Positions 2,095-4,189 of a stretch of 4,189 bases of DNA are shown here, in pieces. The notes below the pieces were generated by a model. It did no database searches, had not been told where the DNA came from, and saw only the letters and a list, made by a program, of their open reading frames with translations. The DNA is taken from the IMG/VR virus record IMGVR_UViG_2681813225_000018. One strand, written 5' to 3'. This DNA is from a virus (taxonomy: Duplodnaviria; Heunggongvirae; Uroviricota; Caudoviricetes). The stretch's first letter is position 1. Each line of letters starts with the position of its first letter. Both the position numbers and the translations under genes were made by a program.

Positions 2095-2340
2095 TTACAT
2101 CATAGTACCGTCAGTTCCGGGCTGAACCGGCTCTGGTTGCTCTACGGGTTGAGGCTCATTTTCCGTGCTGTTTTCAGCCGGAGAACGACCAACCATTCGG
2201 GCCAGCACTTCATCAACATATGCGTCGATTTGTGCCTCAAAATCCTTGCGAACCTGCGCCTTCAGCACGCGGTTCACTTCTTCAGAATAAAGTGCCTGTT
2301 TGACAAGCTCTTCAGTAACCGTGCCTTTAATCTCTGGCAT
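2095..2340 (-). CDS. Hypothetical small acidic protein, 81 aa; resembles the small conserved proteins found after esterase genes in lambdoid late regions
   Basis: Strong AAGGAG ribosome-binding site 8 nt upstream of the ATG at 2340. Sequence is helix-like and charged (MPEIKGTVTEELVKQALYSEEVNRVLKAQVRKDFEAQIDAYVDEVLARMVG) with a Pro/Glu-rich tail. The overlapping + strand 123-aa ORF looks non-coding. Confidence 0.6.
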   Translation of the reverse strand: MPEIKGTVTEELVKQALYSEEVNRVLKAQVRKDFEAQIDAYVDEVLARMVGRSPAENSTENEPQPVEQPEPVQPGTDGTMM

Positions 2341-2375
2341 GAATATTCTCCTTTCCTTTTCTGGTTCACAAAAAA

Positions 2376-2555
2376 TTAAATCTGACCGGAGTCTTTCGGC
2401 TGCGGCATTACAGCACCGCTTTTTATCTTTTCCTCGGCAGCTGCATCAATTTTATTTCGAAAATAATTGCGAATAATTTTATAACCACCGCTGACAAGCA
2501 ACAGACAACAAACCACCGTGCAGAAATACAGCAGGCAGACGTTTATATATGTCAT
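2376..2555 (-). CDS. Small single-pass membrane protein, 59 aa (below the ORF-track length cutoff)
   Basis: Hand translation from ATG 2555-2553 to TAA 2378-2376 gives MTYINVCLLYFCTVVCCLLLVSGGYKIIRNYFRNKIDAAAEEKIKSGAVMPQPKDSGQI: one hydrophobic segment at residues 5-22, then a basic/charged tail. GTGAGG ribosome-binding site 5 nt upstream. Sits tightly between the esterase gene (57-bp gap) and the 81-aa gene (35-bp gap). Confidence 0.45.
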   Translation of the reverse strand: MTYINVCLLYFCTVVCCLLLVSGGYKIIRNYFRNKIDAAAEEKIKSGAVMPQPKDSGQI

Positions 2556-2612
2556 ATAAGCCTCACTCTTATTAACTGATGTTACAGCCGGATAAATTCC
2601 CGGCCGTCACGA

Positions 2613-4189
2613 TTATGCCGCAGGGGTATTAACCTCAAGGACAACGCTCTCAAAAGACACGCCATAAGTTGCCCCTTTGGTGACATCTGTCAGTGTCAGC
2701 GTATCTTTGGCAGGGGAAAGTGCATCTTTCACCATCTGGAATGCCTGGCCCGGAGTGCCATCCAGCACAGGCGTTACCTGGGCACTTCCCGCCGTAAACT
2801 TCAGGACAAGTGTATGCCACTGGTTATTGTAGGCTCCAAATGATCCCAGTTTCGTATTCCCCCCTGTTTTATGGTGCATCAGATTTAACTGGCCGCCTGT
2901 TGTCTGGAGATAATACGCCATCAGGAACGGTGTGCCTGTACCACTCATGGTTACACCTTCCGGGACCGTATCGGTGTGGAGGTAAATACCCAGAGCAAAC
3001 TGGCCTTCTTTTACTTCACCTGACAGACGGAATTTACAGGTCAACTGACCACCATGCTTCAGAAGTTCACCGGCTGCATCAGTTCCATGGGTAAGCGCCC
3101 AGGTTTTTCCGCTTTGTTTGGATACGGTCAACGCTTTACCTTCGTCCGTCAGCTGGATTGTACCATCTGTAATTTTCCAGCCCTGAGCCGGGGCTTCTCC
3201 TGCTGATGCTTTAAGTGAAAGCAGCGTACGGAGTGACGGGGATGTCGGATGGGGGGACTCACTGCCTCCTGGCTGACTACCTGTCGGCGCTTCCGGTTTC
3301 CCACCCGGCGCGGGCTGAGGCAGGGCTTCACCATCAGGGGCCACACCGGCAATAAATGCAGAGGTCAGACCTGCATATTTAAGAATTGCTGATGCAAAAC
3401 GATCTGAGACCAGAAAACGGCGCGCCCAGGAGCTAAAATGGGTTGCCCTGGATGCTGTTGTCCAGTTGCCATCTCCCCGTGATTCCGCACCATAATACCC
3501 GGCAGAAGCGATATCCGGGTCGTGCTCCGGCAGGTTGGTCGCGGTTTTATTACCGAACTCATCGTGCATCAGTGGAACAAAGTGAATGTTCTCGGAAGCC
3601 CGGTTTTTATATCCGCTATAAATGGTTTCATATGCCGCCGGGTTCTTCTCTTTCCAGTCATAGGTTGTGTCACCACATAACCACGGCACACTGTCTGATG
3701 AACCACCAATACACTGACCGGAGAAAGCACCAAGATCCGCACGGAATTTTTTCACCATCGCAGTAAACTGGGCACCATGCTGGGCCGGGGTCGCTTTAAG
3801 GTCTCCTTCCCCCTGAATCCATACGACAGATAACAGCACATTCTTTGGATTCGCCTCAAGTGCCGCTTTAGTTCGACTGACAAGATCCTGATACAGTGGG
3901 GTATCCACTCCCCAGCGTAGTGACGCCTCGGCTGCACCACTTGCCGGATCGAATGAGCCAACTGCGCCGGTTGTAAAAGCAGAGCCGCCACGGGCACAGG
4001 GAACCAGTAAAATCCCGGCATCAGCAGGAATCACCGGTAATACTTTTTTCGCAATATGAAGTCCCTGCCCCACACAACCATACTGCCCTTTTTTCAGGTC
4101 TGCTTTTGGATGGTTCAGCAGACTCATATTCTGAACATCATGAAGGCAGTGATCTGCTGGAATGATTTCATTGTATTTGCAGGGAATAC
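2613..4189 (-). CDS. Partial (5' end outside window) SGNH/SASA-type esterase resembling prophage sialate O-acetylesterases (NanS-p-like), with a Pro-rich linker and a C-terminal beta-rich domain
   Basis: 504-aa ORF from the track; the frame stays open upstream of the ATG at 4127 to the window edge (...IPCKYNEIIPADHCLHDVQN-MSLL...), so the true N-terminus lies beyond 4189. Contains LLVPCARGGSAF, which matches the conserved glycine block of SASA esterases as I recall it, then a linker PQPAPGGKPEAPTGSQPGGSESPHPTSP and a ~200-aa C-terminal domain. The expected N-terminal GQSN catalytic motif would lie outside the window. Confidence 0.65.
   Translation of the reverse strand, partial: IPCKYNEIIPADHCLHDVQNMSLLNHPKADLKKGQYGCVGQGLHIAKKVLPVIPADAGILLVPCARGGSAFTTGAVGSFDPASGAAEASLRWGVDTPLYQDLVSRTKAALEANPKNVLLSVVWIQGEGDLKATPAQHGAQFTAMVKKFRADLGAFSGQCIGGSSDSVPWLCGDTTYDWKEKNPAAYETIYSGYKNRASENIHFVPLMHDEFGNKTATNLPEHDPDIASAGYYGAESRGDGNWTTASRATHFSSWARRFLVSDRFASAILKYAGLTSAFIAGVAPDGEALPQPAPGGKPEAPTGSQPGGSESPHPTSPSLRTLLSLKASAGEAPAQGWKITDGTIQLTDEGKALTVSKQSGKTWALTHGTDAAGELLKHGGQLTCKFRLSGEVKEGQFALGIYLHTDTVPEGVTMSGTGTPFLMAYYLQTTGGQLNLMHHKTGGNTKLGSFGAYNNQWHTLVLKFTAGSAQVTPVLDGTPGQAFQMVKDALSPAKDTLTLTDVTKGATYGVSFESVVLEVNTPAA

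Follow-up and report, generated by a model that had tools for sequence, protein, structure and literature searches.

A diverged NanS-p-type esterase module between gin and com in a Mu-like prophage

The 4,189-nt stretch of caudoviricete DNA analyzed here (IMG/VR record IMGVR_UViG_2681813225_000018; hereafter, the window) raises the question of why genes typical of the late region of Shiga toxin (Stx) phages are found there without the lysis genes that usually follow them. Its minus strand encodes a fragment of a NanS-p-type sialate O-acetylesterase, a 59-aa membrane protein of the DUF1378 family and an 81-aa protein of the DUF826 family, and beyond the DUF826 gene come a hairpin, a stronger terminator, and the com and mom genes. 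A previous sequence-only reading of this DNA stated that, in Stx-type lambdoid prophages, nanS-p is followed by one or two small ORFs and then by holin and endolysin genes, and proposed that either the lysis genes had been lost or the cassette is an independent cargo unit. The observations behind this dilemma hold: all three ORFs lie on the minus strand (ORF list; Pfam scores above the gathering thresholds), the window contains no ORF for a holin, endolysin or spanin (ORF list, Pfam), and the stated gene order is that of all 80 lambdoid loci which we compared, as far as their contigs reach (DUF1737-SASA-Cterm, DUF1378, DUF826, holin, lysozyme). The best account of the locus, which we consider likely, is that a portable module consisting of a nanS-p-type gene and the DUF1378 and DUF826 genes is carried as cargo between gin and com-mom, that the lysis genes reside elsewhere and none has been lost, and that the esterase is produced late and released by lysis.

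The esterase gene (2613..4189, minus strand; ORF, Pfam and PDB matches) is cut by the window edge, its start codon and GQSNA serine motif lying ~480 nt outside, so that the window encodes aa 162-685 of a 685-aa protein. The fragment had been given as 504 aa, counted from an internal Met (4127); read in frame from 4187, it comprises 524 residues. Recovery of the upstream sequence from locus L001, identical to the window across the shared part, yielded the full-length protein, which carries the Ser block GQSNA at aa 124-128. Pfam assigns this protein to SASA (E = 1.6e-13) and DUF6645 (E = 8e-26), both above the gathering thresholds, and phrog_143, the NanS-p group, matches it at 3e-273; the sole match to a tail family is weak (phrog_25867, E = 1e-6 across 105 residues). 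Chromosomal NanS of Escherichia coli (YjhS; 3PT5), a single-domain protein of ~330 aa which is not phage-borne and lacks the N-terminal and lectin-like C-terminal domains, aligns end to end with aa 108-432 (E = 3.7e-110), including the GQSNA, GG, QGExD and H blocks. The suspected NanS-p-type identity was thus borne out by the matches to NanS and to the C-terminal domain of NanS-p (6YP6, E = 1e-41): the protein possesses the SGNH/SASA Ser motif, and its closest affinity is to NanS and NanS-p rather than to tail spikes.

We take Ser126 and His411 to be the catalytic pair, based on motif alignment and on structural work on NanS. The part of the catalytic domain within the window (aa 162-432; 3375..4187, minus strand) contains block II, CARGGSAF (3975-3998), block III, WIQGEGD (3801-3821), and the His block, RATH (3435-3449), all on the minus strand and named according to published block definitions (PMC10462455). 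NanS and the NanS-p of Stx2a phages have RSSH or RASH in the latter position, and prophage 86 has RPTH (PMC10462455). A Pro/Gly/Ser-rich linker (aa 442-479; 3234..3347, minus strand), located between the two PDB-matched regions, connects the catalytic domain to a lectin-like jelly-roll domain of the DUF6645 family (aa 481-682; 2625..3230, minus strand). Both the Pro-rich linker and the separate C-terminal domain had been noticed from the sequence, and the suggestion that the latter may bind carbohydrate agrees with its homology to a domain proposed to be a carbohydrate binder. Of the four aromatics that make up the proposed sugar site, three are retained and one, the equivalent of F611, is missing (our own numbering of the 6YP6 alignment). 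Because of this missing residue and the RATH block, the specificity of the enzyme could differ from that of its homologs. Esterase activity has been demonstrated for the NanS-p alleles of EDL933 and O104:H4 (reviewed in PMC8065619). By analogy with the tested NanS and NanS-p enzymes, the protein would remove 9-O-acetyl groups from Neu5,9Ac2 on mucin sialoglycans and, since it lacks a signal peptide, would presumably meet this substrate upon phage lysis of the cell.

The two small genes belong to the very families that follow nanS-p in Stx phages (Pfam; 80 lambdoid loci), and they succeed the esterase gene directly and in the same order, DUF1378 and then DUF826, as in all of those loci. The DUF1378 protein (PF07125; 2376..2555, minus strand; E = 9e-24, 83.8 bits against a cut-off of 25; phrog_494) has a single transmembrane helix at its N-terminus, with a basic stretch behind it, and shares 53% identity with the lambdoid homolog from the same genome. 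The acidic DUF826 protein (PF05696; 2095..2340, minus strand; E = 3e-15, 56.5 bits against a cut-off of 25; phrog_311) is 47% identical to its lambdoid counterpart and is present as an identical copy in Mu_JNE082796. Among phage records, DUF1378 (309 records) and the esterase (347 records) have the same taxon profile; the tblastn search with DUF826 retrieved 10 records and is too insensitive for counts. Because both proteins accompany the esterase into a phage without an adjacent holin, we tie them to the esterase, with which, rather than with the holin, they would act, on the sole basis of co-occurrence. PADLOC and Pfam searches yielded no matches indicative of a defense or toxin role for either of them or for the variable-slot ORFs described below. 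Judging from these similarities, the trio is a diverged homolog of the unit located just upstream of the holin gene in lambdoid Stx phages. It shares with NanS-p of those phages (933W L0105/z1466; phi24B vb_24B_21/gp84) the SGNH/SASA domain, the Pro-rich linker and the jelly-roll domain, as well as the DUF1378 and DUF826 genes following in the same order.

The genome that carries this trio is not lambdoid. Bases 452-4189 of the window make up the right end of a Mu-like transposable prophage of the Sp18 type, which is inserted into the J gene of a lambdoid prophage. Positions 1..451 (plus strand) belong to the interrupted host-specificity (J) tail gene (Pfam Ig_J; up to 98% identical to J of Stx phages), the break falling ~2.2 kb into a gene that measures 3.55 kb in phage 2851. 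Three independent insertions have sequence in common only from position 452 on, where the conserved phage end (452..579) starts with TATAGCGCGGCGATTTTTTTGATACC, and E. coli matches to the window begin at 446-452. The prophage end begins TATAG; phage Mu ends are TG...CA. Prophages of the Sp18 type are capable of transposition (PMC7430833), and in the present case the element landed in the tail gene of another prophage.

A complete relative, which matches the window across the region save for one base in mom, shows what lies beyond the window. Its flanking genes include gin, an invertible tail-fiber segment, Mu-type baseplate, sheath and head genes, and the transposase genes A and B, and it further encodes a Mor-family activator, a lysozyme and LysC, an Rz1-like spanin. 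The lysozyme and spanin genes are located beside the late activator (Mor/C), ~24 kb from the trio. All components of a Mu-like right-end module are therefore accounted for: gin, com-mom and the phage end at the locus, and A/B, Mor/C and the Mu-type head and tail backbone in the relative.

The order and orientation of gin, com and mom, the com-mom overlap, the GATC sites upstream of com and the Mu-type end just after mom are all common to this prophage and phage Mu. The com-mom assignment made from the sequence was confirmed by the respective Pfam families: com (1271..1471, minus strand; Zn_ribbon_Com; RefSeq coordinates) encodes a 66-aa Zn-ribbon translational activator of mom, and the overlapping mom (580..1317, minus strand; Mom, E = 6e-77) a 245-aa adenine modification enzyme, which in sibling phages is replaced by a C5 cytosine methyltransferase. 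Upstream of com, five GATC (Dam) sites (1519..1691), in a cluster that includes a palindromic pair at 1515-1545, mark the presumed mom control region; methylation at such sites regulates mom. In Mu, the late promoter is annotated within the gap between gin and com, and Pmom likewise has GATC sites upstream of com. That gap, from the gin stop to the com start, measures 94 bp in Mu, whereas ~3.3 kb, comprising the trio and a variable ORF slot, is inserted at this position in our phage. The slot, which lies outside the esterase trio, is occupied by an ECs4996-like ORF (~1586-2056) broken by -1, +8 and -1 indels (alignment with Sakai ECs4996; 'frameshifted' in RefSeq) and by other ORFs in sibling phages. 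Its 3' part forms a 64-aa CxxC...CxxC ORF (1862..2056, plus strand) that matched no Pfam or PADLOC family; an Rfam scan of the window also returned no matches.

The arrangement recurs widely. The order gin, esterase with the novel N-terminal, SASA and C-terminal domains, DUF1378, DUF826, com, and mom or the C5-methyltransferase gene is found in 33 of 33 IMG/VR loci and in 16 of 17 metagenome loci, and the gin/nanS junction is present in 205 of 5,426 complete E. coli genomes (~4%), mostly of Shiga toxin-producing strains of cattle and human origin. The same layout characterizes prophage Sp18 of O157:H7 Sakai (ECs4992-4998), in which the invertase gene is followed by genes for proteins of 679, 60 and 81 aa (ECs4993-4995, the trio), an opposite-strand ORF, com and mom; these genes are annotated only as hypothetical, and we found no paper discussing them. 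The window differs from Sp18 in its broken ECs4996-like ORF, and its esterase and DUF1378 allele differs from the commoner one, represented here by loci L002 and L004, with ~67% identity in the catalytic domain of the esterase and ~40% in the C-terminal domain. Holin and lysozyme genes follow the trio in lambdoid loci only (tblastn panel).

Compared with lambdoid nanS-p, the window gene sits on a Mu-like, myovirus-type phage, in the gin-com interval and not in the stx/Q-holin region, is not under Q antitermination, and shows ~67% nucleotide identity to every lambdoid nanS-p, with ~40% identity in the C-terminal domain and one sugar-site aromatic missing. At the protein level, its identity to the co-resident lambdoid esterase is 67% in the catalytic domain and 43% in the C-terminal domain. 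A recent copy from the co-resident lambdoid cassette was considered and rejected: blastn yields a single segment at 68%, and identity to every phage record is ~67%.

What drives transcription of the trio can be approached from the 90-bp spacer between gin and nanS-p, which lies outside the window. The 39-kb prophage has only three sites at which the motif CTGAWWTNNCGCAAAR is followed after 21-22 nt by a -10-like TAYGMT hexamer, and these precede lys, I and nanS-p. The motif was derived from the positions of the lys and I promoters of this phage and is thus partly defined post hoc. With a 16-mer matrix built solely from the lys and I sites, the nanS site ranks third among 78,266 positions, 0.7 bits above the next-best one, its fit to the lys/I consensus being confined to the 5' 16 nt; a 22-mer matrix did not single it out. 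Because no equivalent site was found for P or mom, the motif does not mark the late promoters of this phage in general. Nevertheless, the motif and the hexamer are kept in a diverged lineage with an otherwise different spacer, and Mu late promoters are reported to be built as seen here, with a -10-like hexamer but no good -35 (PMC2582627). The motif shared with lys and I suggests late expression, in which case the esterase would be transcribed from its own putative promoter in the spacer, dependent on a Mu C-type activator. The spacer contains no convincing terminator, so that transcription from gin may read through.

At the other end, the cassette had been said to stop at a terminator. A hairpin of eight GC-rich pairs (2067..2086) indeed separates the convergent DUF826 gene and plus-strand ORF, with a fold energy of -21 kcal/mol and z = -4.1 for both strands. 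Owing to its poor U-tract, the terminator scan missed it, and it resembles a weak bidirectional terminator. The scan did call a strong intrinsic terminator on the minus strand (1750..1779; -21.5 kcal/mol, z = -6.8), with a 13-bp stem followed by UUUCCCUUUUAU. Cassette transcripts would be expected to end at the hairpin (2067-2086) or at this strong terminator (1779-1750), ahead of the mom control region, insulating the toxic mom operon.

The sharpest difference from lambdoid NanS-p concerns the N-terminus of the esterase. DUF1737, which Pfam finds in the lambdoid paralog with E = 9e-16, is absent from the 685-aa protein, and its place is taken by an orphan all-beta domain of ~80 residues, modeled as a beta-barrel from five sequences, with no similarity to the lambdoid protein from the same genome. 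A single-sequence AlphaFold model was poor (pLDDT 45), whereas the model from the 5-sequence alignment is usable at moderate confidence (pLDDT ~80-88 for residues 1-70). The domain matched no known family, and the weak structural matches were to unnamed phage proteins of ~90 aa. When 1.84 billion representatives were searched exhaustively with phmmer, five matches were returned: four are short or incomplete pieces of this domain, two of them continuing into GQSN esterase sequence, and the fifth is a low-complexity repeat protein which we judged spurious. Two word-index searches retrieved fragments of the same protein only, a metagenome scan the same E. coli types only, and one-genome-per-species contigs gave no match; no paralog was found in the same prophage or in Mu. 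A Salmonella Mu-like prophage encodes, downstream of gin, a 28%-identical version fused to GQSN esterase sequence. [quoted passage not shown]

How do these observations bear on the alternatives? That the locus is a lambdoid late region from which holin, endolysin and spanin genes were deleted, com-mom having taken their place, would fit the homology of the trio to the unit preceding the lambdoid holin and the lambdoid J fragment with which the window begins. However, that fragment lies across the Mu-type end at 451/452 and is merely the insertion target; the genes upstream of the esterase are gin and those of a Mu-type tail instead of Q or stx; the layout is repeated in 33/33 loci, in 205 genomes and in Salmonella; and nucleotide identity to the lambdoid cassettes is ~67%. 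The Mu-like phage is itself equipped with lysis genes, which the complete relative carries at the usual Mu position. We therefore regard such a deletion as extremely unlikely: the lambdoid frame in which the locus was originally read does not apply, a lysis cassette is not expected between gin and com, and no lysis genes were lost because the cassette is cargo of a Mu-like phage that keeps them beside the late activator C. It is the other proposed alternative, an independent cargo unit, that the position of the trio upholds. Decay into non-functional DNA of a defective prophage might be read from the frameshifted ECs4996-like ORF next door and from the truncated esterase genes of the related loci L020 and L022, but it appears very improbable, given that the three ORFs are intact here and nearly identical across dozens of genomes, remain intact in diverged lineages at 57-67% protein identity, and keep the catalytic blocks. 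Furthermore, Sp18 has been judged an intact prophage, albeit one not induced by mitomycin C (PMC2669165).

This lack of induction (PMC2669165) makes it uncertain how often the esterase would be released, and it bears on a reading that we consider rather unlikely, namely that the trio acts as a 'moron' for lysogenic conversion and is active in the prophage state, by read-through from the constitutively expressed gin or from a weak sigma-70 promoter, instead of late and C-dependently, with low-level enzyme freed by occasional spontaneous lysis. A gene that is transcribed only late would seldom be active in a prophage that mitomycin C does not induce (PMC2669165); the gin-nanS spacer offers no convincing barrier to read-through, the cassette occupies a variable accessory slot, and the late-promoter motif evidence is modest. 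Against this, the -10-like hexamer stands at the lys/I spacing without a good -35, as in Mu late promoters (PMC2582627), expression of lambdoid nanS-p increases on induction (PMC10462455), and an esterase without a signal peptide would stay in the cytoplasm unless the cell lysed. A further possibility, which we find rather doubtful, is that the esterase is mainly virion-borne, its N-terminal domain docking to the Mu-like head or tail, and acts on mucus or O-acetylated bacterial surface glycans for reaching or adsorbing to hosts rather than for feeding the lysogen. According to a 2026 preprint on phi24B, the DUF1737 domain of NanS-p assembles into hexamers on the hexons of the capsid (10.64898/2026.04.10.717836), and it is exactly this reported capsid anchor that has been replaced, by a domain which occurs only in fusion with NanS-type esterases of Mu-like phages; the position of the gene directly after the tail-fiber and gin region and the weak structural matches to unnamed phage proteins point in the same direction. 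Yet the replacement domain resembles none of the structural proteins of this prophage or of Mu, and its model is of moderate confidence.

Late production of the esterase as phage cargo, followed by release at lysis, is hence the reading that we retain. With NanS-p, Shiga toxin-producing E. coli can exploit the O-acetylated sialic acids of mucin, and a strain harbors several copies. The published counts and analyses that we found treat NanS-p as genes of lambdoid prophages, whereas the window contains a diverged copy on a Mu-like prophage, so that the esterase repertoire of such strains has probably been under-counted. Co-occurrence further indicates that DUF1378 and DUF826 belong with the esterase and not with the lysis genes that adjoin them in lambdoid phages. 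Finally, that the differing domain is the reported capsid anchor of NanS-p bears on whether such enzymes are generally virion components. As a tentative idea, to which we assign a rather low probability, the N-terminal replacement may be an adaptor swap, whereby the orphan beta-barrel tethers the esterase to a structurally unrelated, myovirus-type particle as DUF1737 is reported to do to the lambdoid capsid, with the DUF1378 and DUF826 proteins serving as conserved accessory factors in assembly, processing or release. If this were true, the esterase would be a plug-in 'mucus enzyme', attached to the virions of different phage lineages via exchangeable anchors.

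Two mobile elements meet in the window. Bases 1-451 (+) hold the 3' part of the J (host-specificity) gene of a lambdoid phage, including its Ig_J domain, and match Stx-phage J genes, whereas bases 446/452-4189 give megablast matches of 99.5-100% in 42 complete E. coli genomes and are never joined there to bases 1-451. In three independent insertions the shared sequence starts exactly at position 452 (TATAGCGCGGCG...), which identifies 452-4189 as one end of a mobile element. The insertion point lies ~2.2 kb into the 3.55-kb J gene; at this junction (451/452, window 446-460), a Mu-like prophage has transposed into a lambdoid tail-tip gene, one prophage disrupting another. 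An insertion at exactly this site is absent from the 5,426 complete genomes of E. coli. The conserved prophage end begins with TATAG, in contrast to the TG...CA ends of Mu. Over this region, strain OkiPb01685 differs from the window by a single base, in mom, and its element is a complete 39-kb Mu-like prophage. It encodes a repressor, ner-like products, both transposases (A and B) and Gam. Directly after the gene for a late activator of the Mor family come those for lysozyme, an unnamed product and LysC, which is Rz1-like. Genes for head, sheath, tube and baseplate are present, as is an invertible tail-fibre segment with a gin-type recombinase, after which the esterase trio and com-mom complete the element.

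Profile searches and a listing of the ORFs upheld, with small corrections, the layout given in the sequence-only reading, namely an esterase-like gene and two small ORFs followed by com-mom. All five lie on the minus strand: a large ORF with Pfam SASA and DUF6645 domains extends from 2613 to the window edge, followed by the genes for the 59-aa DUF1378 protein (2376-2555) and the 81-aa DUF826 protein (2095-2340), com (1271-1471) and mom (580-1317; Pfam Mom, E 6e-77). The 504-aa esterase fragment reported earlier is the correct ORF but was started at an internal Met; read in frame, the window encodes residues 162-685 (524 aa) of a protein 685 aa long. Likewise, the terminator placed after the 81-aa gene is a stable hairpin (2067-2086, z -4.1) but has a poor U-tract, and a far better minus-strand terminator is found at 1779-1750 (z -6.8).

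The same reading had proposed that either lysis genes were lost next to the esterase or the cassette is an independent cargo unit. The lambdoid gene order from which loss was argued is real: all 80 lambdoid loci fetched with the DUF826 alignment read DUF1737-SASA-Cterm, DUF1378, DUF826, holin, lysozyme. In phage Mu, however, only 94 bp, containing the mom promoter, separate the gin stop from the com start, compared with ~3.3 kb here; given also the complete Mu-like prophage of OkiPb01685, the cassette is an insertion into the gin-com interval, a place where no lysis cassette is expected. The loss of lysis genes is therefore rejected, the phage keeping its own ~24 kb from the cassette, and the cargo unit is the correct explanation.

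Over its whole length, the catalytic part of the protein aligns with E. coli NanS (3PT5; E 3.7e-110, aa 108-432), and the separate C-terminal domain anticipated earlier matches the crystallised lectin-like domain of NanS-p from the Stx phage phi24B (6YP6; E 1e-41, aa 481-682). The sequence has the SGNH-type blocks CARGGSAF, WIQGEGD and RATH and, shortly beyond the window edge, GQSNA (aa 124-128). Thus, the catalytic Ser motif, whose absence would have spoken against a NanS-p-type esterase, is found in the full-length protein, which groups not with tail spikes but with phrog_143 (NanS-p; E 3e-273, compared with 1e-6 for tail proteins). On sequence grounds, the enzyme is a member of the NanS/NanS-p group, with both the catalytic and the lectin-like domain. 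The last block is RSSH or RASH, with one exception (RPTH), in the compared NanS and Stx2a-phage NanS-p proteins (PMC10462455), as opposed to RATH here. Of the four aromatics proposed to bind sugar, three are kept, as equivalents of Y510 (F in the present protein), Y515 and Y540, and the 6YP6 alignment has a gap at F611 (own numbering). Two features of NanS-p as usually described are missing, DUF1737 and a place in a lambdoid late operon. The ~67% nucleotide identity to every lambdoid nanS-p rules out recent copying from a lambdoid phage; protein identity to the lambdoid copy in the same genome is 67% for the catalytic domain, 43% for the C-terminal domain, 53% for DUF1378 and 47% for DUF826. 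Several mosaic alleles exist among Mu-like phages: in that of the window, the catalytic domain, the C-terminal domain and DUF1378 are distinct variants, whereas DUF826 and the N-terminal domain are shared with the commoner allele. Not every copy is intact, since frameshifts truncate the Mu-type alleles of L020 (1959-2915, 318 aa) and L022 (2271-3770, 499 aa), two related loci.

Scanning IMG/VR with the 81-aa protein as query yielded 33 loci, all of which show, within contig reach, gin, esterase, DUF1378, DUF826 and com, then mom or a C5 cytosine methyltransferase. Of the 5,426 complete genomes of E. coli, 205, chiefly cattle and human STEC, have the gin/esterase junction, and nearly all of the matches listed adjoin a gene annotated as recombinase. 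The window prophage and Sp18 of O157:H7 Sakai are one and the same element, with ECs4992 as the invertase, ECs4993, ECs4994 and ECs4995 (annotated as hypothetical proteins) as the trio, ECs4997 as com and ECs4998 as mom. The DNA has been public since the Sakai genome; our literature search found no description of the cassette and no paper mentioning ECs4993-4996. In a Salmonella enterica Mu-like prophage, the product encoded 3' of gin starts with a 28%-identical N-terminal domain and continues into GQSN esterase sequence. This Salmonella prophage (locus L039) has two additional small ORFs (9426-9910; 58 and 87 aa) between gin and the esterase gene, the 87-aa one with a sub-threshold hint of an Xre-like HTH.

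Of 50,697 phage records, 347 carry the esterase and 309 carry DUF1378, with the same taxon profile, and in DLP12 of K-12, which is without nanS-p, none of the genes lying between quuD and essD is annotated as DUF826 or DUF1378. Together with the lambdoid gene order, these observations show that the three genes behave as one unit, present in two unrelated phage backbones. Two loci look like reciprocal recombinants of the Mu-type and lambdoid cassettes: L024 (IMG/VR; DUF1737-SASA-Cterm, DUF1378, DUF826, com, mom, without gin) and L137 (metagenome; gin, Mu N-term-SASA-Cterm, holin, lysozyme). They reflect either rearrangement between prophages via paralogous esterase genes or assembly chimeras.

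DUF1378 has a single hydrophobic helix, at its N-terminus, with basic residues after it; DUF826, an acidic, helical protein, ends in a ...D..MM motif that is conserved between the Mu and lambdoid versions. Neither matches any defence family. Because both accompany the esterase into a phage without an adjacent holin, we infer that they belong with the esterase and not with the holin. In the E. coli phage records PV340545-PV340554 (PhiR5/PhiR12 series), DUF826 homologues bear the label "head completion protein", which looks unsupported, the corresponding PHROG family being listed as of unknown function, but which would be relevant if DUF826 were virion-associated.

The DUF826-com interval is a variable slot holding unrelated small opposite-strand ORFs in different lineages (76 and 97 aa, without family match; L013 6250-7130 and L021 6260-6930). 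At 1586-2056 (+), the counterpart of Sakai ECs4996 (154 aa, opposite strand), a putative gene that matches no family, is broken by -1, +8 and -1 indels near 1620, 1700 and 1896; what remains of its 3' part is a 64-aa CxxC...CxxC ORF (1862-2056), preceded by a good Shine-Dalgarno sequence. The heptamer GTAGTAT is repeated in tandem (1696-1718, 3.3 copies) between the presumed mom control region and the terminator, and Sakai has 8 bases fewer there. Upstream of com, the stretch 1519-1691 contains five of the 13 GATC sites in the window; two palindromic GATC-containing repeats are also found, at 1515-1545 and 1637-1658 (AATCGATCG...CGATCGATT and, as a direct repeat, two copies of AAAACGATCAT). 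The GATC-rich region resembles the mom control region of Mu, although in a different layout; mom of Mu is regulated by Dam methylation and OxyR. Directly after com, mom is replaced by a 350-aa C5 cytosine DNA methyltransferase in L002 (6963-8015), L004, L007, L020, L125 and L139, sibling Mu-like prophages having exchanged one anti-restriction DNA-modification gene for another under the same com control.

Mu late promoters are reported to combine a -10 hexamer with a C-binding site centred at -43.5 and to lack a good -35 (PMC2582627). Both lys and protease gene I of the OkiPb01685 prophage are preceded by CTGAWATYCCGCAAARCCYGCC, with TAYGCT 22 nt on; the gin-esterase spacer, ~430 nt past the window edge, has CTGAATTAACGCAAAA, with TATGAT 21 nt on. 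Even with two substitutions allowed, the degenerate 16-mer has no further occurrence on either strand of the 39-kb prophage. When only the lys and I sites were used to construct a matrix, the esterase site came third among 78,266 positions, with a lead of just 0.7 bits over the following one. A diverged lineage, with 81% identity in gin and 57-60% in the N-terminal domain, has a spacer that is otherwise unalignable but retains TGAATTTCCGCAAAA and a TATTCT hexamer at unchanged spacing. These results provide moderate evidence that the trio is probably a C-dependent late transcription unit, which would be the Mu-type counterpart of lambdoid Q-dependent late expression; alternatively, it may be transcribed by read-through from gin. 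Transcripts would end at the 2067-2086 hairpin or at the strong terminator, which lies upstream of the GATC-rich mom control region. The esterase has no signal peptide and would reach mucin at lysis only, as for lambdoid NanS-p, with lysis coming from the phage's own lysozyme and spanin genes.

The N-terminus sets the Mu-borne protein apart. Lambdoid NanS-p begins with DUF1737, which profile search does not detect in the Mu-borne protein; its N-terminus comprises ~80 structured residues and a Ser/Pro-rich linker (...ASSSPSW), with no resemblance to its lambdoid counterpart. The domain is an orphan. Of the five matches that phmmer returned when 1.84 billion representative proteins were searched exhaustively, four are short or truncated enterobacterial fragments of the same domain, two of them continuing into GQSN esterase, and the fifth, a low-complexity repeat protein, was judged spurious. 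Just two of the 50,697 phage records contain the domain, in each case in an unannotated Mu-like insert of an Stx phage, and it is absent from one-genome-per-species contigs. In phi24B NanS-p (gp84), DUF1737 is reported in a 2026 preprint to form hexamers plugged into capsid hexons, the esterase being made as a capsid-decoration protein and later cut at SSP-containing linkers (10.64898/2026.04.10.717836). The domain replaced in the Mu-like version is exactly this reported capsid anchor, which makes adaptor exchange fitting a different virion an attractive, if rather unlikely, reading of the swap. The gene identities are ordinary; of moderate significance, as points for specialist follow-up, are the Mu-like carrier, the portable trio and the replacement of the anchor domain.
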